From the NCBI GenBank assembly GCA_046760225.1, contig JBHIDR010000008.1, positions 1 to 22,696 of the forward strand: a stretch of DNA of 22,696 bases, given 5' to 3'. Below the pieces are notes generated by a model. It was not told the origin of the DNA. It was given only the letters and a program-made list of their open reading frames with translations, and made no database searches. Positions 6,718 to 22,057 of this stretch are shown one piece after another. How positions within the stretch are numbered: the first letter of the stretch is position 1; each line of letters opens with the position of its first letter. The stretch is from Candidatus Aenigmatarchaeota archaeon. GTDB taxonomy: Archaea > Aenigmatarchaeota > Aenigmatarchaeia > Aenigmatarchaeales > JACQIB01. Made by a program: the position numbers and the translations under genes.

Positions 6718-7641
6718 TCATTTTTTTCTCTTAATTGGTTTTCTGACCTTCCTTCTGTTCCTCAAGTAGAATGATGTGAACCCCAGGTACTGTATTGGAA
6801 CCGCGAATATGATGCCTATGATGAATGCGAAATAAAAGCTAAGAAGCGGTTGCAGGGATAAAAGGAGGGAGAGTATCAGGGCCAGAATTATCGTAGGTAC
6901 AAGCGCCACTGCAAACATCATGATTCCCAGAAGTATCATTAGTGCCAGCACGCTAAGGAAGTTGGACTTGGACAGGTGATAGCTCCTTTTCACGGCTTCA
7001 ACAACCCTGTAATTGTCCAGTGCAACTGCCTGGAAGGAGAAGATAAGGAGGAGTGCCACGATGAATATCGCTATGTATCCTACATACATGAAAATCATTC
7101 CGAACATGAACAATCCAGGTGATTGGAGCACTATGCCCAGAACAAGGGGAGCAAGAAATATCCCGAACACGAGCATGGTTATTGCAAATACGAGCAGGCC
7201 AACGCCAATGAATGGCTTCCACTTCTTCTTGCTTGTCTCAATCATTGTTTTTACTCTTGTTCTTCTCTTCAGGGCCTCTTCACACATCTTTATGAAGCCA
7301 CCAACGAGCACATATGCCAGAAGCAGTGCAACTACAAGCATGATGCCCATGAAAACAGGAGGAAACAGCCCCATTACAGGAGGAGCCGCACATATTGCTG
7401 TAGGCCCAAGGCATGTAGCAGCGTATGCACTGTAACTGTAAAGATAAGAGAACATTGGAACGAATCCCACCAGTACCGAACCGTAAATTACTACATAAAT
7501 CAGGAAGATTCCTCCGAGAAGGGATTTGAGGTTCCTCTTATAGGAATGCCATGCAGCACTTACGTCCTCCATTACCATGGTGAATTTTTGGTTGGCTGTC
7601 TTATAAAGGTTAGTGTTTTTGTCGAAATTGGCTACGCTCAT
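6718..7641 (-). CDS. Polytopic membrane protein
   Basis: About 6 hydrophobic segments, 'EAVKRS..L.K.NF' motif, basic tail; abuts the upstream gene. Confidence 0.75.
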   Translation of the reverse strand: MSVANFDKNTNLYKTANQKFTMVMEDVSAAWHSYKRNLKSLLGGIFLIYVVIYGSVLVGFVPMFSYLYSYSAYAATCLGPTAICAAPPVMGLFPPVFMGIMLVVALLLAYVLVGGFIKMCEEALKRRTRVKTMIETSKKKWKPFIGVGLLVFAITMLVFGIFLAPLVLGIVLQSPGLFMFGMIFMYVGYIAIFIVALLLIFSFQAVALDNYRVVEAVKRSYHLSKSNFLSVLALMILLGIMMFAVALVPTIILALILSLLLSLQPLLSFYFAFIIGIIFAVPIQYLGFTSFYLRNRRKVRKPIKRKK

Positions 7642-10563: not shown

Positions 10564-10842
10564 GGTGTGCTGGACATAGCCCGTCTTCTGTGAAGCGAAT
10601 CAGCGCTGCAATTCGCGCTTCATCTGCATCGCTTTGCAACATTTGACTTAGCTGCCTACCCGCCCCTCTTTCATCATCAGGGCCTACTTGGCATTGCACC
10701 TTGCCGGCTTGTGCCGTGAGAAACCATGAAGCTTCTCTTCGACTGCCTTGACCTCTCGGCCATGCGCCTTGGGCGCGGCAAATGTATCGGTGGACGGAAC
10801 TTCCTCACTGCAGAGCAGCGGTGGTTGCGTGCCCAGCTCACC
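10564..10842 (-). ncRNA. rnpB: RNase P RNA
   Basis: CR-I GAGGAAGUUCCGUCCACC, CR-V ACAGAAGACGGGCUA (P4 pairing), P1 GGUGAGCUGGGCA/UGUCCAGCACACC, P2 GCAAC/GUUGC, P7 UUGCCG/CGGCAA. Confidence 0.93.
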
Positions 10843-14509: not shown

Positions 14510-15137
14510 TTTACGTGTGCCTACAAAAGATTAAATTTTACCTTGTTAGAGGTACCAACATGTTTCAAAAACTTTTCCACATTCCTCCATGTAAACACTA
14601 TCAATCTGAAAATATTGTTAGTGCCATTTTTATAGGGCCCATAGATTTTAGCTCTTATTTCCAACCTTTGTAAAATATATTGAGTGTATTCCAGAATTTT
14701 CTTGTCTTTTTGATACATTATTACTCTTATATCAGATTTCTTGTTTTTATTTTTGTATATAGAGCCTTCCGCATCAAAGAACCCCCTCAGGAAACTTATC
14801 TCATCACTTAATGTGTCAAATTTTACTTCATTGAGAGGTTTCATTAAAATGTTCAACACATCACTGTCTAGATTATTCTTGTGAATGTACACATAGATTA
14901 TATAAATTCCGTCAGGAGTTCTTAGAATCTTTGGGTTCTTTCCAGATACGTCCTTCAATATTGGAGCGATTGTATTTTCCAACCATTCCTTGTTCTTCTG
15001 CCTAACTACTATTCTTATCCTTTTGTTTAAATCGTATACGTGGCCATCCGCCAAAGATCCTTTCAAATAAGCCAGGGCTCCTTCCATGCACATTTATTTT
15101 GTTGGTTCCTTTAAATATTTTCTTAAGTAAGGCACAT
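14510..15137 (-). mobile_element. BHB intron 13 (after Ec 2661, sarcin-ricin loop), endonuclease-encoding
   Basis: UACG-AA^A-UGUGCCU...AGGCACA-CGUA-AA^A; splicing restores AGUACGAAAGGAAC. Confidence 0.9.
14521..15093 (-). CDS. LAGLIDADG homing endonuclease (two motifs)
   Basis: LAYLKGSLADGH and FLRGFFDAEGS. Confidence 0.9.
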   Translation of the reverse strand: MCMEGALAYLKGSLADGHVYDLNKRIRIVVRQKNKEWLENTIAPILKDVSGKNPKILRTPDGIYIIYVYIHKNNLDSDVLNILMKPLNEVKFDTLSDEISFLRGFFDAEGSIYKNKNKKSDIRVIMYQKDKKILEYTQYILQRLEIRAKIYGPYKNGTNNIFRLIVFTWRNVEKFLKHVGTSNKVKFNLL

Positions 15138-15296
15138 TTCGTACTTGCCCCTTCTTCGGGTCAGGCAACAACACCCTCAGTAGATATAAACCGTACTGTC
15201 TTTGTCGTTTGGTGTAGGACACCCAAAAAGCATAAGCGAGACAATTCTCTTAGGCTCATAAGCTACTCCTTGCGGGCATATCTAGCCTATGGGGCG

Positions 15297-15365
15297 GTTT
15301 CAGTCATTGCCTGAACTGCCTCGATATAAATTTATCATACCCTGGTATACCAACCTCATTGAAAT
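15297..15365 (-). ncRNA. Possible second intron-encoded C/D sRNA
   Basis: AAUGAGG-guide UUGGUAUACCAGGGU-AUGA...guide GCAGUUCAGGCA-AUGA; weak terminal stem UUUCA/UGAAA; degenerate C'. Confidence 0.4.
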
Positions 15366-15439
15366 GGCTACCAAACTCTGAAAGTTTCGGTCACAGCCAG
15401 AGCTAATGCTCTCTCAGTTGGATCATCTGAGGTATGACA

Positions 15440-15512
15440 GCAGGAATCGGATGTGACCTCATCTGTCATCTGCATAATGCATCATATTATCGACACTAAC
15501 CTCATACCCTGC
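15440..15512 (-). ncRNA. Intron-encoded box C/D sRNA
   Basis: Stem GCAGG/CCUGC, C UAUGAGG, D' AUGA, UGCA/UGCA hairpin, C' GAUGACA, D CCGA; D guide UGAGGUCACAU has 11/11 complementarity to 23S at 21905-21915. Confidence 0.75.
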
Positions 15513-15611
15513 TCGAAGACCACTATTGTTTGCGTCCCACTACCAAATCACGACGTACTGAACCCAGCTAATGTCCCCCTTTGATCAGTGAACACCTGCA
15601 CCCTTGGCTGC

Positions 15612-16414
15612 TTGCAGTTCAAGATAGGAAACCGGTATCAGGCAAGCCTCTTCAAAAATGCCATAATTTCTGGTTTGGTTTTGAATTTTTTCAATTCCAA
15701 TTGTTTTACTTCGTAACTTCTTACTGCGATATCAAGCACTTTATTCTTCTCGTATCCTTCCCAGTTCTTACTATCACCTGTTACCCTTACGCTTGGAATG
15801 AATCTTATTGTTCTCGCAAATTTTTTGATATCTTTTTTCTTTATTAATAAAACTTCATCATTTTCAGGTCTTATAATGGGCTCAAAACCGAGTTCTCTTA
15901 ACAGTGCATATACTTGTCTTCTTATTGTCGGATGCTTACAAGCAAATTTAACCCACTTTTTTATTTCCCATAATCCATATCTCTTATTCCAAACAACCCA
16001 TAAGCTAATTGAACCGTCGCAAGAAAACATTACTTGCAACATTCTAATCTTATGGATTTTAGGAAGTTTGAAAACAAACTTCGGTATTCTGGAATTTGGG
16101 AATTTCCCATTTTCCAGCTGTTTTGTTCTAAATGTGGGTATTAGCGTTAGCAAATATTCTCCTATTCTCTTGCTGGTAACCTTTGTTTTAATAACATCTC
16201 TGTATCTACTATCTCTGAATTGAGTAAATTTTACGTCACCAAAGATGTCCCTCATAATTTTCTTAAAAAGGCTGTGTAATTCTTTGGATTTACCTGTAAA
16301 TTCTATAACCCAGCCTCTACCTTTAGAGCTAACGCTTCCGTCTGTTAAAAGCAACCCTACTAACAAGGCTAAGTGACCCGATACCGGCGTGCTACGCACA
16401 TCCCCATCCTGAAT
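15612..16414 (-). mobile_element. BHB intron 11 (after Ec 2534), endonuclease-encoding
   Basis: GCAG-UA^A-UUCAGGAUGGGGA...UUCCUAUCUUGAA-CUGC-AA^G; second stem CCGGUAUCGGG/CCUGAUACCGG encloses the ORF. Confidence 0.9.
15638..16399 (-). CDS. LAGLIDADG homing endonuclease (probable GTG start inside the intron)
   Basis: LALLVGLLLTDGSV and MLQVMFSCDGSI motifs; G-rich SD-like sequence before GTG 16399. Confidence 0.82.
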   Translation of the reverse strand: MRSTPVSGHLALLVGLLLTDGSVSSKGRGWVIEFTGKSKELHSLFKKIMRDIFGDVKFTQFRDSRYRDVIKTKVTSKRIGEYLLTLIPTFRTKQLENGKFPNSRIPKFVFKLPKIHKIRMLQVMFSCDGSISLWVVWNKRYGLWEIKKWVKFACKHPTIRRQVYALLRELGFEPIIRPENDEVLLIKKKDIKKFARTIRFIPSVRVTGDSKNWEGYEKNKVLDIAVRSYEVKQLELKKFKTKPEIMAFLKRLA

Positions 16415-16440
16415 TACTGCACAGCCAGGAGGGGGGAAGC

Positions 16441-16474
16441 TTCTGCCTACAGTAAGTTTGCACCTAGCTGTAGT
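16441..16474 (-). other. BHB intron 10, 34 nt (after Ec 2508)
   Basis: CUGU-CG^A-CUACAG...CUGUAG-GCAG-AA^G. Confidence 0.88.
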
Positions 16475-16499
16475 CGACAGCGAGGTAGCAACGCGCGGG

Positions 16500-16745
16500 T
16501 TCTCGTTCCGAGAAGGGCTATAATTTCTCCCCAATTGGTTCCTCAAAAATAAATCTGACTTCTTGCTTTTATTTTGAAACGATTTTTTAAGTGACATAAA
16601 ATCACTGACCGAATATTTGTCGAAACTTCTTTATCTAAATTTCGTGTCTGGATAATATCAATGACCGAAATTGAGAATATGGAAGTTGAGACAGAGGTCA
16701 AGTGATTTTATGGAACCTATTGAAGAGAAAACCCCTCACCGAAAT
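16500..16745 (-). other. BHB intron 9, 246 nt (after Ec 2483); probable endonuclease-deleted remnant
   Basis: AUCG-AC^A-UUUCG...CGGAA-CGAG-AA^C (one mismatch in the central helix); splicing restores AUCGACCCCGC. Confidence 0.82.
16622..16690 (-). ncRNA. Conserved intron RNA motif, copy in intron 9
   Basis: UC-AACUUCC-AUAUUCUC-[stem]-UAGAUAA-AGAAGUU-UC. Confidence 0.75.
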
Positions 16746-16751
16746 GTCGAT

Positions 16752-16791
16752 TTGCTCATTGCTATCTTTCTGTTGAAAGATTTGAGCAATT
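16752..16791 (-). other. BHB intron 8, 40 nt (after Ec 2477)
   Basis: GCUC-CU^A-AUUGCU...AGCAAU-GAGC-AA^A. Confidence 0.88.
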
Positions 16792-16964
16792 AGGAGCTCT
16801 CGCCCGCCACGACTCTGTTATCCCCGGGGTAGCTTTTCTGAAGTCACCGGCATCCATCAAGGACAAACTGGTGTATCGTTAGCCCACGCTTTCGCGGCTG
16901 GATCCTTTACTGTGCAGAATCCAGTCAGGCCTCCTTTTGCGCTTACACTCTACTCCTGATTTCT

Positions 16965-16995
16965 TTCTGGAAGCAATAGCTATGACTAATGCTAT
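16965..16995 (-). other. BHB intron 7, 31 nt (after Ec 2306)
   Basis: CUGG-UC^A-UAGCA...UGCUU-CCAG-AA^A. Confidence 0.85.
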
Positions 16996-17014
16996 GACCA
17001 GGATGAGGAAACCT

Positions 17015-17053
17015 ATGCCCGAATATCTCCCAGACTAATCTGATAGATACTCT
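17015..17053 (-). other. BHB intron 6, 39 nt (after Ec 2287)
   Basis: GCCC-AA^A-GAGUAUCU...AGAUAUUC-GGGC-AU^A. Confidence 0.9.
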
Positions 17054-17280
17054 TTGGGCGCCCTTGATCTCCTGTCAAGGGCGTACCGCCCCAGCCAAGC
17101 TGTCCACCAACCGGTGTCCCCCCGAGTCGAGGGTTAGCCATACAGTCACAAAACGGCAGTGTTACATTGGCGCCTATCCAACGCCCGAAAACGTTGGCTT
17201 AGCAGCTCCTGCCTACACTATGGAAACGTAACCATACAGCAACGACAGGCTACAGCAGAGCTTTCCGTTGAGGTAAATAG

Positions 17281-17988
17281 TCAAAGAAGCGACAACCGCT
17301 GTTCAGTTGTTAGTTTAGGCGGGCAATTGCCCGTCTTTTCAAAAAGATAAATTTTTGACAAATGTTTTGGATTGAAAAAACCAATTTTATACATCCAATC
17401 GTTCAACATCTTCTTTCCATACATCCTTATCCTGAATTCTTTGAAACCTCTTCTTGAGGTCTTCTCAAGAGCAGGTTTAAAGCCCAGCAGTTTAAGCTGA
17501 GTCTGCACAAAATCTGCCAGTACTTCATTATTTGTGAACATCTCTATTCTAGGTTCGCAGTGTAGACCTTTTCTATTCTTTTTGAATGAAACAGAAAAAT
17601 CTGCATCTGCAAGCCCTCGTATGAAGTGTGGTATAAGACTTCCTTGAATCCATATCGGTACGTGCTTCAATTTCAATTTATTACCAACAGGAATTCCAAT
17701 GTTAACTTTCTTTTGTACGACTTCTTTGGAATTCAGAACAGCTATTAATGTACGTTCTCCCTTCTTCAAATAAACCCTTGGTCTTTTCCTATAAAGTCTT
17801 TCTATGATGTCTGGAACAATATTGGAATAAAATTCCTTATCGTTCTCTACATCACCAGAAAATTCCACACGGAAAATCCCATGATTTTTATTTATGTAAA
17901 GACAACCATCACCCAAATGTAAACCAGTTTCATATGCAAATAATTCCTTCTTTTTAAGTTTTTTGATATGAAAATTTTTAATTTTCAT
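17281..17988 (-). CDS. LAGLIDADG homing endonuclease
   Basis: FAYETGLHLGDGC and FIRGLADADFS. Confidence 0.9.
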   Translation of the reverse strand: MKIKNFHIKKLKKKELFAYETGLHLGDGCLYINKNHGIFRVEFSGDVENDKEFYSNIVPDIIERLYRKRPRVYLKKGERTLIAVLNSKEVVQKKVNIGIPVGNKLKLKHVPIWIQGSLIPHFIRGLADADFSVSFKKNRKGLHCEPRIEMFTNNEVLADFVQTQLKLLGFKPALEKTSRRGFKEFRIRMYGKKMLNDWMYKIGFFNPKHLSKIYLFEKTGNCPPKLTTEQRLSLL

Positions 17989-18002
17989 GAGGACATTTAG
18001 GT

Positions 18003-18056
18003 GAAGCTGACTTATCTAACTTTCTATGAAATAGAAAGGGAGAATATGTCAGCTGA
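18003..18056 (-). ncRNA. Conserved intron RNA motif, copy in intron 5
   Basis: UC-AGCUGAC-AUAUUCUC-[stem]-UAGAUAA-GUCAGCU-UC. Confidence 0.75.
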
Positions 18057-18219
18057 ACTCGCCTCTTCTCATTCTACTTAACCCCATCCACGGGGTCTTC
18101 TCTTCCCTCTGAGGGTCTGTGGCCTATTCACCACAAAAGCAGGTTCGCCGGGGTCCGACCCGGGACAGTGGGAAAGTCGTTAATCCATTCATGCGGGCCG
18201 ACAATTAATCGGCAAGGGA

Positions 18220-18251
18220 TTTCGTTGTAAGGTCTGGGAAGACCTTGACAT
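18220..18251 (-). other. BHB intron 4, 32 nt (after Ec 1938)
   Basis: GCGU-AA^A-UGU(C)AAGGUC...GACCUUACA-ACGA-AA^U (one central mismatch). Confidence 0.82.
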
Positions 18252-18539
18252 TTACGCTACCTTAAGACGGTCAGAGTTACCGCCGCCGTTTACGGGGGCT
18301 TGGCCCGGTTGAAACCGGGTTTAACACACCCGCACTGGGCAGGACTCACCAACTATACTTAGGATTTCTCCCTAGCAGTCAGCTACGTTTTTGTTAAACA
18401 GTCGCCTTCCCCTGGTTACTGAGACCTACCTGATCTCCAGATAGGCAAGGGTTCTACCAAAGATACCCCTCTAATTTGCCGAGTTCCCTGGATCGGTGTA
18501 TCCCGTCACGCCGTCGCCTTTTCAGCAAGAGTCACCTGT

Positions 18540-18569
18540 ATCCTGAGATATTAGTGAAGCTAATATCTT
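18540..18569 (-). other. BHB intron 3, 30 nt (after Ec 1615)
   Basis: ACUG-AC^A-AGAUAUUAG...CUAAUAUCU-CAGG-AU^A; splicing restores AACUGACACAGGUG. Confidence 0.85.
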
Positions 18570-19033
18570 GTCAGTTCTTGATACGGACACAGCCAATCCG
18601 ACCGGTTTCATTTTCATGGTCTCCTGGAGTCACCCGAACTCCCGTATACACAGAAGCTATTAGCGCCTTCACCCGGTTCTCTCTTTGACAGAACTTCCCG
18701 GGTTTCAGCGGTTAACTTACGTCGGACTATCCTGAAGCGTCTGAAACCGGACTTGCGTTGCCGCGTGTATGGCCGTGGTGCAGGAATATTAACCTGCTTC
18801 CCTTTCCCGAGCTTCAGTTAAGGGCTCAGTTAGGATCGACTAACTCCCGGCTGAACGACATTGCCGGGAAAATCTTGCTCTTCTGGCGGTCGGGGTTCCA
18901 ACCCGACTTTGCTGCTACTACCAGCAGGATTCTCATTTCCGGGCGGTCCACACCTGCTTACGCAGATGCTTCTGTCCGCGCGGAACGCCTTCCTACGCTA
19001 TGACTTTCGTCATCTGGGGTCTCGGTAGCAAGC

Positions 19034-20053
19034 TTACTCCCGTCCATTTTCACCGCGCCGCCCCTCGACGGGTCCGCTGTTTCGTGGGCGATGAATCAAC
19101 TTTAATAAAACTTCCAAATTCCTTTTCTTTGGGTGTGCAGACCCAATTAAAAAACAAAATTTTTCTATGTCATCTTTATTGCGAATACTTAATGTCCATC
19201 TTGGATATGTGCTGCCTTTGTCAGGCATCGTTACAGATAAGTTCGACTTAATCTTCAAGTCCAATAAAATTTTTTTCATATCTTGCAAAGGCGGACATGC
19301 TGTTCGGCTATCCCAGCTCTGATAAAATCTTATTGCCATATTCTGCTTCATGGCCTTCTTCAAAGACATATCAGCTAGGTTGCCACATCCGCCTTCTGCG
19401 TCAAAAAACCCTTTGATGTAAGCTTTTTTCAGTCTTTCTGGAGCCTTCAATACGATTGATGGGGTTCGCCATTTCGTTTGCTTACCAAATGGATGATTGC
19501 AAACGACATGTAAAAATGTAGCCATAATTCTTGATTCGACTCGTAAACCCCATACATCACCCCTAAAAAGCGTGTATTGTGGCTTTTGATTAAAGTTCTC
19601 AAATACGGGTTTGATTTCTGTTTCCAGCCAAGATTTGTGCTTGGCAGAAACCATCACACTGTATCTGTGCTTTCCTGACGATGATATGAAGTGGCTTACA
19701 CTCCCATCTCGTAATGCTCCTAGAAAGTATGCCAGCCTCTCATCAAAAGTTTTGGGCAGAATGACATGTTCGGGGCTTCCAAGCAGCCCGATAAACTCGA
19801 ACTGCCTGAAAGCTTCGTCTAGTAGCTTTGCATTCGAAGTCCTAGCGACATCTTTCACAAAGGCTATCGTCGGCAAAGACGACCATGCCCGTACTGAAAG
19901 ATAGCGTTCAAGACTTTTTACGGAATATCCAAACTTTTTTGCAAAGCCTCTGTATGTCATGCCATTATCATCCCAATAAGCTCTGACAAGCTTCTTTACT
20001 CCACCCAGACGAAAATCGCCTGGTAGTTTATTGAGATAATTTGATAGATGCAC
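19034..20053 (-). CDS. HTH + LAGLIDADG homing endonuclease; stop codon lies in the downstream exon
   Basis: HTH-like GMTYRGFAKKFGYSVKSLERY, LAYFLGALRDGSV, YIKGFFDAEGG. Confidence 0.87.
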   Translation of the reverse strand: MHLSNYLNKLPGDFRLGGVKKLVRAYWDDNGMTYRGFAKKFGYSVKSLERYLSVRAWSSLPTIAFVKDVARTSNAKLLDEAFRQFEFIGLLGSPEHVILPKTFDERLAYFLGALRDGSVSHFISSSGKHRYSVMVSAKHKSWLETEIKPVFENFNQKPQYTLFRGDVWGLRVESRIMATFLHVVCNHPFGKQTKWRTPSIVLKAPERLKKAYIKGFFDAEGGCGNLADMSLKKAMKQNMAIRFYQSWDSRTACPPLQDMKKILLDLKIKSNLSVTMPDKGSTYPRWTLSIRNKDDIEKFCFLIGSAHPKKRNLEVLLKLIHRPRNSGPVEGRRGENGRE

Positions 20054-20099
20054 ATACCCTTAATGGGTCCGCTAGTATTTATAGTCGACTCCTTCGCCT
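19081..20099 (-). mobile_element. BHB intron 2 (after Ec 1095), endonuclease-encoding
   Basis: CGCG-UA^A-GGCGA...UCGCC-CACG-AA^A (one central mismatch; boundaries +/-1); splicing restores GCGUAACAGC. Confidence 0.85.
20076..20083 (-). promoter_or_regulatory. Putative intron-internal TATA box for the endonuclease
   Basis: TATAAATA about 22 nt upstream of the GTG at 20053. Confidence 0.5.
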
Positions 20100-20661
20100 T
20101 ACGCGTTGATTATCGGATGGCTGCTTCTGAGCCTACCGCCCCGCTGTTTTTGGAACGGCACCAGCTTTGTGACTTAGCTTGCATTTGGGGACCTTAACCC
20201 CAGGCTAGCTTGTTCGCTTTTCGGATACCTAGCTTACCCAGGTACCCTCACTCCCACCTTCTATGGCGCTTGCAGATTATTAGTTTGACAGGAAAGACAG
20301 GGATTTCTCCCCACAACTTCCCAATCAGTGCTTTACCCCACAAGCTACCTCTGGTGAGGCTGTGCTGAGACACATTTCGGAAGGAACCAGCTATTAGGAC
20401 TCTCGATTGGCTTTTCACCCCTATGCCCAGGTCACCCGATCACTTTGAGATAGAACCGGTAACAGGCCTCCACGGAGCTTTCGCCCCGCTTCACCTTGCC
20501 CAGGCATAGATCGAGTCCTTTCGGGTCTTATCCCCGTGACTCCTCGCGCTTTCACACGACGCCCCTGGCCCGAAGGCTGCGGGCTTTTTGCTTTCGCTAT
20601 GGCTACGCGCCGAAGCGCTTAACCTTGCCACGAGAATAAACTCCCTGCCACGTGATTCTCG

Positions 20662-21291
20662 TTAAAGAAGCGCTCTCAGTTTCTTCGCCTTTATAGGATG
20701 TTCAAATCCTATTTTTTCAACAAAAATAGAAGCTTGTTTTTTTCCATTAATATGTATCATTGAAAAATCATTATATTCATAGAGGTTCGATTTTATTCCT
20801 TCTAAAGAAAGAACCTCAAAAACGTCTTTTGCTAACCCATGATTATGGACTTTCATTTGAATTCTCAAATATCCGTTCTTATGGTGAGAATCCTTCATTT
20901 CGATAACCGAACCTTCGGCATCAAAAAGTCCACATAAAAGAGAACATCTTAATTTTGAGTCCTCTTTGACGGTCTTCGGTACTCTTACTATCCTGGACTT
21001 ATTACCCGAAGGTATTCCAAGATGCTTAAATATTGTCCATATTTTCTTGGAATGCACATAAGCTACAAAGGAGTTATTGTAGCTATCAAAGTATATTTTT
21101 GGCATCCTCTTGAAGACCTTTGAAAATTTTCTAGCAAATATTTCTTGTATAAATTCTTTATTTTCTTCTACTGCCCTCACAAGATATTTACTGGAAAGAT
21201 TTCCGTCTCCAATTATGAATCCCATCAGATAATTCAAATCCTCATTATTTTTCAGAATTTCAGCTTCTTTATTGAAAATTTGAATTTTCAT
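20662..21291 (-). CDS. LAGLIDADG homing endonuclease
   Basis: LNYLMGFIIGDGN and LLCGLFDAEGS. Confidence 0.92.
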   Translation of the reverse strand: MKIQIFNKEAEILKNNEDLNYLMGFIIGDGNLSSKYLVRAVEENKEFIQEIFARKFSKVFKRMPKIYFDSYNNSFVAYVHSKKIWTIFKHLGIPSGNKSRIVRVPKTVKEDSKLRCSLLCGLFDAEGSVIEMKDSHHKNGYLRIQMKVHNHGLAKDVFEVLSLEGIKSNLYEYNDFSMIHINGKKQASIFVEKIGFEHPIKAKKLRALL

Positions 21292-21305
21292 GGGTCTTCT
21301 TAGGC

Positions 21306-21372
21306 GAAGCTTCCTTATCTACTTTTCGCGTCTCCCTACGTCCAAGACCGAAAAGGAGAATATGGAAACTGA
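21306..21372 (-). ncRNA. Conserved intron RNA motif, copy in intron 1
   Basis: UC-AGUUUCC-AUAUUCUC-[stem]-UAGAUAA-GGAAGCU-UC. Confidence 0.75.
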
Positions 21373-22025
21373 GTCATCACACTTGCTCTAATTTCGAAAC
21401 GGACACCATGACACTGTAAGCCTTTCCTCCTACACACCCATTTCTGGATTTTCGTTCGGAAAGGCACCTTTCGCGCCATGGCTGACTATAACTGACTGGC
21501 TTCAAGCTCTTTTCATCTTCTATGAAGAATGCTTTTCAGCTTTCTGTCACCATACTAGTGCGCTATCGGACTCCAGACATATTTAGGGTTGGGTGTTGAT
21601 GCCACCCACCTTCCTACAGCATATCCGAGCTGCAGTACTCTTTTCCCGCAATCAGCTTTCTGTCCTACCCCTACAGGGCTATCACCTTCTCGGGCACGCC
21701 TTTCCAGGCGACTTCGAGTCGGACAGCGAAGCTGTACACGGGTTCCACATATCCACTGCATTTCTGCAGCGATTCGGTTTGCCCTGTTCCGCCTTCACTC
21801 GCCGTTACTAACGGAATCGAATTTCTTTCTCTTCCTCCGCTTAATAAGATGCTTCAATCCAGCGGGTTCCCTTTCTCCGAAGAGAATGACAGCCGAAGCT
21901 GCCGTGAGGTCACATTAGGTAATTCCTGGTTCTAGGGCTGCGTGCGCCTCGCCAGGACTTATCGCAGCTTGCTACGACCTTCTTCAGTGCTGGAGCCAAG
22001 CTATCCACCAGGCAGTGTGTGGTGC

Positions 22026-22057
22026 TTAGACCCTATCCTCATTTCTCCTCCACTGGC
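22026..22057 (-). other. 23S pre-rRNA processing stem, 5' arm (BHB)
   Basis: GCCAGUGGAGGAGAAAU-GAGG-AUA-GGGUCUAA; with 14263-14294 forms 17 bp / 3-nt bulge / 4 bp / 3-nt bulge / 8 bp. Confidence 0.92.

Follow-up and report, generated by a model that had tools for sequence, protein, structure and literature searches.

The 23S rRNA gene on contig JBHIDR010000008.1 of a Candidatus Aenigmatarchaeota archaeon (GenBank assembly GCA_046760225.1) harbors a 347-nt intron which, judging from comparative sequence analysis, is probably a carrier of guide RNAs. The intron lies on the minus strand at 15202-15548 of the 22,696-nt stretch analyzed here (the window). It is of the bulge-helix-bulge (BHB) type, contains no open reading frame (ORF) and is composed of kink-turn (K-turn) modules, two of which resemble box C/D guides and probably act in the methylation of 23S rRNA. 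A first-pass annotation of the same stretch had described the intron as a multi-guide carrier. Comparison with related genomes largely supports that description, while the targets and unit boundaries it gave have been corrected. The best supported guide was absent from that annotation: it is antisense to the P loop of domain V and places its fifth position on G2251 (E. coli numbering, taken from NC_000913 rrlH).

The limits of the intron follow from the break in the exon sequence. The 5' exon ends in ...ACGUCGUG at 15549 and the 3' exon begins with AGACAGUACGG at 15201, corresponding to E. coli G2597|A2598, and the joined exons align with E. coli 2590-2607 without a gap. At the junction, two 3-nt bulges, UGA at 15550-15548 and AAA at 15203-15201, flank a 4-bp central helix, and a 6+9-bp closing stem of the intron adjoins them in the computed fold. 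Since the exon-exon helix of the strict hBHBh' form is weak, the BHB is of the relaxed form. The intron alone folds at z = -2.6. The earlier placement of a BHB intron after position 2597 is borne out by the exon break, the helix and the two bulges.

15202..15548, minus strand: ORF-less BHB intron of 347 nt (from the exon break, numbering against E. coli and the fold)
15204..15207, minus strand: 3' CGAC of the intron, pairing with exon GUCG at 15554-15551 as the 4-bp BHB central helix (from the fold)

The sense strand of the intron holds no ORF, its longest stop-free run being 37 codons. A tblastn search for an endonuclease remnant with the five LAGLIDADG proteins of the window gave a best match of E = 0.10 over 9 amino acids, and the earlier statement that no endonuclease ORF is present stands.

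A site-specific scan for 23S genes interrupted at this position, with one genome per species, returned 95 loci (numbered here with the prefix L). In 25 archaeal loci among these, the end of an insert at G2597|A2598 could be located; three further same-site loci are cut by short flanks. Nine inserts are short (69-132 nt), fifteen are long and ORF-less (178-461 nt) and one, the 722-nt intron of L009, has a LAGLIDADG ORF. Most belong to Aenigmatarchaeota, with two labelled Nanoarchaeota and one Infirmifilum. The junction is of the GUCG/CGAC type in all of them, the same BHB design recurs in the 22 archaeal introns compared, and the 3' end is of the ACGAC/ACGAU/GCGGC type in 23 of 23 same-site introns compared (22 archaeal). 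The closest public relative of the window is L025, an Aenigmatarchaeota metagenome-assembled genome with 85.9% identity over 3477 aligned bases.

The guide to the P loop resides in C/D unit 2, which was delimited by covariation of its terminal stem and by a covariance model, R1, built from the unit. Throughout, boxes were read for C/D geometry, with C as xxGAxxx and D as xxGA.

15252..15312, minus strand: C/D unit 2
15312-15309 with 15255-15252, minus strand: terminal stem of 4 bp, AGGC/GCCU
15307-15301, minus strand: C box, AUGACUG
15300-15288, minus strand: D' guide, AAACCGCCCCAUA
15287-15275, minus strand: hairpin
15271-15260, minus strand: D guide, AAGGAGUAGCUU
15259-15256, minus strand: D box, AUGA

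Besides the window, 14 of the 15 related long ORF-less introns contain unit 2. They share two blocks, GGY-RAU-GA-NUK-NACCGYCCC and GGAGUAGCU-NAU-GA-RCC, which together form a K-turn whose bulge RAU-GA and opposing GA are invariant. All seven pairs of the terminal stem are changed on both sides among the copies (e.g. GGC/GCC, GGU/ACC, GCAU/GUGC, UUCAAC/GUUGAA). None of 500 shuffles reaches the covariation score of this stem, and pairing falls from 84% to 22-53% in slid controls. Of 22 copies, 21 have a C-to-D' spacer of 12 nt, the exception being the window with 13 nt, and nnGA directly follows the D' spacer in 16 of the 22. In L016 the unit is complete, consisting of C, 12 nt, AUGA, a 5-bp hairpin, GAU-GA, 12 nt and AUGA. 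A segment at 15251-15289, previously proposed as a C/D-like unit of its own, does belong to a C/D element but represents the 3' half of unit 2.

Two sites in domain V are the proposed targets, where N+5 denotes the nucleotide opposite guide position 5.

17085..17093, minus strand: proposed site for the unit 2 D' guide in the P loop, UGGGGCGGU (E. coli 2249-2257), with N+5 at G17091 = G2251
16826..16835, minus strand: proposed site for the unit 2 D guide, AAGCUACCCC (E. coli 2434-2443), with N+5 at U16831 = U2438

The D' spacer holds ACCGYCCC, antisense to UGGGGCGGU of each genome's own 23S rRNA where readable, and UGGGGCGGU itself is invariant in the 11 relatives in which it can be read. In the window the D' guide forms 9 bp with 17093-17085. 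All copies of unit 2 set guide position 5 opposite G2251, and the C-to-U drift seen in AT-richer copies is retained as G.U pairs. The D spacer ends in GGAGUAGCUU, which is antisense to 16835-16826 at nine of ten positions with one constant A.C mismatch. This match had been noted in the first-pass annotation, and it proves to be conserved and to co-vary with its target through compensatory changes in relatives:

Most long-intron genomes: target AAGCUACCCC, unit 2 D guide GGAGUAGCUU
L039, L040 and L053: target AAGUUACCCC, unit 2 D guide GUAACUU
L021: target AAGCUACCUC after removal of a mini-intron (AAGCUAC|CUC), unit 2 D guide GAGGUAGCUU
L067, L008 and L024: target AAGCUACCUC, unit 2 D guide GGGGUAGCUU

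ACCGYCCC and GGAGUAGC might instead form an intramolecular helix. This is disfavored because the guide change in L039, L040 and L053 breaks this helix (pair 20-72) yet matches the rRNA target. The mini-intron of L021 is about 31 nt long and lies at ~530-566, inside the unit 2 D target (AAGCUAC|...|CUCGGGG).

The unit 2 cassette is not confined to the 2597-site intron. When R1 was run on 31 sources, 22 copies were found, in 21 loci besides the window (63.9 bits). The model recovers all 16 strong copies, namely the window, 14 intron copies and a copy in L077 that lies outside its intron (58.7 bits). The other copies outside the 2597 intron, in L021, L067, L063, L008, L059 and L024, score from 33.7 to 14.4 bits and occupy a helix tip in domain V (E. 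coli ~2305), between ...GGGUCAUAGCAG and CUGCUACCC...

L021, 316-383: helix-tip copy
L067, 4017-4084: helix-tip copy
L008, 8356-8421: helix-tip copy
L063, 8966-9029: helix-tip copy
L059, 3048-3111: helix-tip copy
L024, 5061-5127: helix-tip copy

These six have a textbook C/D layout of terminal stem, C, 12 nt, D' (A/C/UUGA), a 3-6-nt loop, C', 12 nt and D, and they carry the same two guides as unit 2. Three of them are parsed by the architecture scan, and these have terminal stems of 12-13 bp. With just one 3-nt bulge nearby, no clear BHB is present at the helix-tip copies, which may be excised, may fragment the rRNA or may persist as an expansion segment. The window has merely a short variable hairpin at this position (17051-16971). 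In L077 the 2597-site intron is without unit 2, and the copy is found ~365 nt downstream, within AT-rich sequence at 7376-7443 on the minus strand, in either a further intron or the 3' trailer. Since this copy is outside the 2597 intron, the cassette changes position within the rRNA locus, and its occurrence at different positions of rRNA genes points to a modular, mobile RNA element.

Turning to the 5' part of the intron, C/D unit 1 was identified by a scan for C/D architecture and by its homologues in L025 and L076.

15440..15512, minus strand: C/D unit 1
15512-15507 with 15445-15440, minus strand: terminal stem, GCAGGG/UCCUGC
15505-15499, minus strand: C box, AUGAGGU
15498-15486, minus strand: D' spacer, 13 nt
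15485-15482, minus strand: D' box, AUGA
15481-15471, minus strand: hairpin UGCA-UUA-UGCA with a 4-bp stem
15469-15463, minus strand: C' box, AUGACAG
15462-15451, minus strand: D guide, 12 nt, AUGAGGUCACAU
15450-15447, minus strand: D box, CCGA

The order of terminal stem, C, 13 nt, D', hairpin, C', 12 nt and D is that of an archaeal C/D RNA, with a single U between the stem and C, a G before C' and a U between D and the stem. The internal C'/D' is present as AUGA, the 4-bp stem and GAU-GA. The full double-K-turn layout matches once in the intron and in 8 of 2000 dinucleotide shuffles, and scanning the antisense strand and the five other introns of the gene for it gave 0 matches. The first-pass limits of this unit were exact, and L025 and L076 keep the same layout with changed, covarying stems. 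The terminal stem is GCAGGG/UCCUGC or GCUAG/CUAGC among the window and these homologues, and the inner stem UGCA/UGCA, CGCGCGC/GCGUGCG or GCUGC/GCAGC. The L032 version has one K-turn and a canonical CUGA. Dismissal of unit 1 for want of canonical boxes was dropped in view of the spacing and the homologues. Box conservation among same-site introns had been proposed as a check on the carrier idea. What recurs in them is the layout, of unit 2 in the long introns and of unit 1 in L025 and L076; in both units the tandem GA/GA, the 3-nt bulge and the closing stems are present and covary, while the box sequences are degenerate.

The unit 1 D guide has two candidate targets.

16838..16849, minus strand: CGGUGACUUCAG (E. 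coli ~2420-2431), conserved candidate target, with N+5 at G16845
21905..21915, minus strand: AUGUGACCUCA (E. coli ~119-129), window-specific 11/11 target, with N+5 at G21911

The second of these was the target originally assigned to the unit. The match is real, as UGAGGUCACAU (15461-15451) is Watson-Crick antisense to 21915-21905 at 11 of 11 positions; its conservation is not. In L025 the 5'-domain target is identical, but the guide AUGAAGUCACCA matches it at 8 of 11 positions (mismatches at 1, 2 and 8) and is instead complementary at 10 of 10 to its own domain V sequence CCGGUGACUUCA. The L032 guide likewise matches its own 5'-domain site at 8 of 11. The chance level depends on how the question is posed. 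An 11-nt antisense match anywhere in the intron is not significant, because 295 of 2000 dinucleotide shuffles (15%) reach it, whereas the 12-mer fixed in advance by the boxes, which matches at 10 of 10 positions from 2 to 11, gives P = 0.002 against 19200 null 12-mers. A non-contiguous guide score discriminated poorly, with null 12-mers at a median of 8/10. Methylation of G21911 (E. coli ~123) as the principal task of unit 1 would account for a duplex that occupies exactly guide positions 1-11 and adjoins box D; given the mismatched guides of L025 and L032, this is possible though rather unlikely.

The domain V site fares differently among relatives. The window guide forms 9 bp at 16847-16839 with one G.U pair, compared with 10/10 in L025. 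A D-guide core, GARGUCAC, is common to the window, L025, L032 and L076 (also to the partial L082). It is antisense to GUGACUUC, which is found in 13 of the 20 23S genes compared, including those of L025 and L032. The domain V site is found 3 nt upstream of where the unit 2 D guide would pair. We read the domain V site (N+5 G16845, G ~2424) as the conserved target of unit 1, with the 5'-domain site (G ~123) as a possible second target specific to this lineage. In L025 and L038, an intron separates the two adjacent guide targets at E. coli ~2433/2434, upstream of AAGCUACC.

Between the two units lies a third conserved module, a K-turn hairpin designated Kt-A.

15335..15437, minus strand: K-turn hairpin module Kt-A (from covariation on 11 homologues)
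Outer stem of Kt-A, minus strand: UCAUACC/GGGUAUGA
15428-15423, minus strand: conserved AGAUGA
Inner stem of Kt-A, minus strand: UCCAAC/GGUUGG, with the non-bulged GA at 15415-15414
15363-15356, minus strand: bulged strand UUC-AAU-GA, followed by conserved UAUACC

Across the 11 homologues, double changes occur at five of the seven pairs of its 7-bp stem with 93.7% of cells paired, and invariant AGAUGA and UACC flank the hairpin. Two of the C/D-like units proposed earlier dissolve in this structure: 15411-15431 is the 5' half of the Kt-A hairpin, with its partner at 15363-15350, and 15297-15365 joins halves of two different K-turns. A guide was looked for in Kt-A and none could be assigned. Kt-A is not taken for a third C/D unit: were AGAUGA its C box, the D' spacer would be 4-5 nt, and the outer stem is not closed by a conserved GA. 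One conjecture is that Kt-A may offer unit 2 a second site for L7Ae/Nop5.

Related hairpins occur in other 2597-site introns. The short ones (69-132 nt; L008, L067, L024, L021, L045, L091, L059, L063) have a Kt-A-like hairpin, UCCAAU-GA ... GAU-GA-AUUGGA, flanked by conserved GGUCAC and AUCGUUGCUGGGUC, with no recognizable terminal C box. An extra K-turn hairpin is found in the 3' part of the L027, L038 and L039 introns (e.g. GUUGC-AAU-GA ... ACUGUCUAAAC-GA-GCAAC). In it, ACUGUCU precedes the non-bulged GA and is antisense to the 3' exon start AGACAGU, and N+5 would be A2600. The window also has a complement to the spliced junction GUGAGACAG, namely UUGUCUCGC at ~15245-15237, which probably belongs to a small local hairpin and has no adjacent GA.

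A module so strongly conserved and yet without a guide raises the question of whether the K-turns are purely structural. They could bind a protein such as L7Ae and present the BHB to the splicing endonuclease, or the antisense stretches could be folding chaperones or placeholders for domain V, in either case without methylation. Besides Kt-A, several observations fit such a role. The internal C'/D' is missing from unit 2 in most long introns, being present in L016 and the helix-tip copies. The targets lie in the core of domain V (H74 strand, P loop) or, in L025 and L038, beside another intron site. In addition, GGAGUAGCUU complements AAGCUAC better than does the 23S partner of the AAGCUAC strand, which reads ...CCCCGUGGA|AGCU... 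at the exon ends. On the other hand, six of the seven copies found elsewhere are canonical two-box C/D small RNAs (sRNAs) with exact 12-nt spacers, a geometry that counts against a purely structural role because it is needed for methylation and not for pairing alone, and position 5 of the guide meets G2251 in every copy. A role without methylation is judged rather improbable.

At the other extreme, the intron could be a decayed homing-endonuclease intron in which C/D-like motifs and antisense matches arose by chance. The same site does host a LAGLIDADG intron in L009, and K-turn-like patterns are common in shuffled sequences. Indeed, the K-turn count is uninformative as a test, with 2 in the intron and a mean of 5.9 per shuffle. 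However, there is no detectable ORF remnant, covariation is strong in both the unit 2 stem and Kt-A, R1 copies are present in 21 loci besides the window and the full architecture of unit 1 is rare in shuffles (8 of 2000). Chance decay is therefore very improbable. The LAGLIDADG intron of L009 also fits the earlier suggestion that the present intron has a host function in place of homing. RNAalifold returned no structure on a whole-intron alignment because that alignment is too gappy, and module alignments were used instead.

Several points weigh against the guide interpretation. The boxes are degenerate (AUGAGGU, AUGA, AUGACAG, CCGA): the strict RUGAUGA is absent from the intron, CUGA occurs only twice, and the units end in D boxes that read CCGA and AUGA. 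A search of 15202-15548 against Rfam gave no C/D family at E <= 1, a result that says little about the kind of RNA because these families are guide-specific. The architecture scanner was written after unit 1 had been seen, and the D' spacer of that unit has no convincing target (P = 0.79). In unit 2 of the window, a plain hairpin stands in place of C'/D', and with the 13-nt spacer and the 4-bp stem this makes the ruler to G2251 less certain than in relatives. Taken singly, neither unit 2 match of the window reaches significance (D' guide, P = 0.10; D guide, P = 0.35), and the best-scoring site of the D guide is elsewhere in the window. The two guide strands could also partly pair with one another (6 of 9 positions), and the covariation between guide and target amounts to few independent events. 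Finally, Haloarcula is given as being without Gm2251 in the relevant passage of PMC2584109.

If the guide interpretation holds, the intron would be transcribed within the pre-23S rRNA, its K-turns would bind L7Ae, and Nop5-fibrillarin would assemble there. The spacers would then pair with nearby domain V of their own transcript or, once the intron is excised, with other pre-rRNAs, so that 2'-O-methylation would be directed to the nucleotide opposite guide position 5. For unit 2, the predicted modifications would be at G2251 in the P loop (D' guide) and U2438 (D guide). For the unit 1 D guide, the prediction would be G ~2424 at the conserved target and, in this organism, possibly G ~123 as well. 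Binding of the proteins, methylation, a mode of action in cis or trans and the stability or circularity of the excised RNA are what we infer from these features.

A broader proposal is that a C/D cassette travels inside the 23S gene of Aenigmatarchaeota and neighboring lineages, residing in an ORF-less BHB intron at G2597|A2598, at the tip of the domain V helix or elsewhere, and methylating peptidyl-transferase-center nucleotides of its own transcript, including G2251. The 2597-site introns would then be kept for a host function and not for homing. We give this proposal an even chance of being correct. Perhaps the cassette also holds peptidyl-transferase-center nucleotides during folding.

Guides with comparable properties are known from other settings. 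In the portions of PMC7994747 and PMC3491384 that deal with tRNA introns, the pre-tRNA-Trp intron of Euryarchaeota encodes a C/D sRNA (sR50), and a stable RNA is described in the tRNA-Met intron of Nanoarchaeum equitans. As with sR50 and its like in those accounts, the RNA of a BHB intron here appears to be a C/D guide aimed at its own host transcript. The host, however, is 23S rRNA, there are two units and an extra K-turn hairpin, the boxes are degenerate, and the targets, counted in rRNA numbering, lie at distances of 150-350 nt or 2.4 kb as opposed to adjoining the intron. The modification itself has precedents: passages of PMC4644070 predict C/D-guided methylation of G2251 in three thermophilic archaea, and Gm2251 is recorded for E. 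coli, yeast cytoplasm and yeast mitochondria in that part of PMC2584109 which lists it. The free-standing sRNAs outlined in PMC4644070 share with the present guide the target nucleotide, the N+5 rule and 12-nt spacers. As far as that outline goes, they are independent genes in thermophiles, whereas here the guide is inside the 23S gene, in an intron or at a helix tip, of Aenigmatarchaeota, Nanoarchaeota and other archaea. Eukaryotic intronic snoRNAs (small nucleolar RNAs) of the box C/D type are similar in that the guide is freed from an intron in a host transcript associated with ribosome production, as sketched in PMC7994747. They differ from the present case, in which the intron is a BHB intron cut by an endonuclease and belongs to the target rRNA itself.

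The contexts of archaeal C/D sRNAs named in the pertinent section of a 2021 review are intergenic, tRNA-linked and tRNA-intron (PMC7994747). Our literature search found no report of a C/D sRNA in an rRNA intron, with the proviso that the slashed term was not searchable and 'c d box' was unmatched. Within the scope of that search, the link suggested by these sequences between ribosomal introns and C/D guide RNAs appears to be undescribed. Thermoproteales and Desulfurococcales have stable or circular ORF-less rRNA introns that resemble the present one in being of the BHB type with a long closing stem; to our knowledge, no K-turn or C/D content has been described in them.

Archaeal rRNA introns are usually viewed as selfish homing elements or inert leftovers. 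If the guide interpretation is correct, conserved guide cargo would provide both a host function and a reason for an intron to persist after loss of its endonuclease, and intron-hosted C/D guides would extend from tRNA to rRNA. Such a guide would be made in cis and in stoichiometric amounts with its target, an economical arrangement for small genomes. The 2597-site introns would also be a prokaryotic counterpart of intronic snoRNAs, with a bearing on the origin of the latter. For uncultured archaea, the predicted 2'-O-methylation sites are G2251, U2438, G ~2424 and, where the window-specific match applies, G ~123.

The host 23S rRNA gene runs on the minus strand from 22032 to ~14281, as delimited by sub-searches and by comparison with 28 related loci. 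It consists of seven conserved blocks, 3029 nt in all, with six inserts between them at E. coli ~569/570, ~1090, 2070/2071, 2530/2531, 2597/2598 and ~2659/2660. The global Rfam match at 16724-22032 is misleading as a gene extent, with a false end at 16724. Five of the six introns have a LAGLIDADG ORF identified with Pfam, and the sixth (15202-15548) is without one.

20662-21291, minus strand: LAGLIDADG ORF in 23S intron
19034-20053, minus strand: LAGLIDADG ORF in 23S intron
17281-17988, minus strand: LAGLIDADG ORF in 23S intron
15638-16597, minus strand: LAGLIDADG ORF in 23S intron
14521-15093, minus strand: LAGLIDADG ORF in 23S intron

Inside the last of these ORFs, a weak match resembling SNORD38 (26.1 bits, E = 0.037) lies at 14782-14836 on the minus strand. 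Its terminal K-turn is well formed (CCUCUC-AAU-GA ... CUGA-GGGGG), its GUGAUGA is perfect and its D' spacer is just 5 nt, and a search for antisense of at least 9 nt to 23S rRNA found none. Among the loci of the site scan, L065, L056 and L088, from E. coli and Shigella chromosomes, matched the site pattern because of 23S indels near position 2597; these look like assembly errors and not introns. The L065 copy is 2859 nt compared with 2904 nt, and its indels make it unsuitable as a reference for E. coli numbering. Near the rRNA gene, the minus strand of the window also encodes an archaeal RNase P RNA (10565-10841, 113 bits) and a Trm1-type tRNA N2,N2-dimethylguanosine methyltransferase (730-1791).

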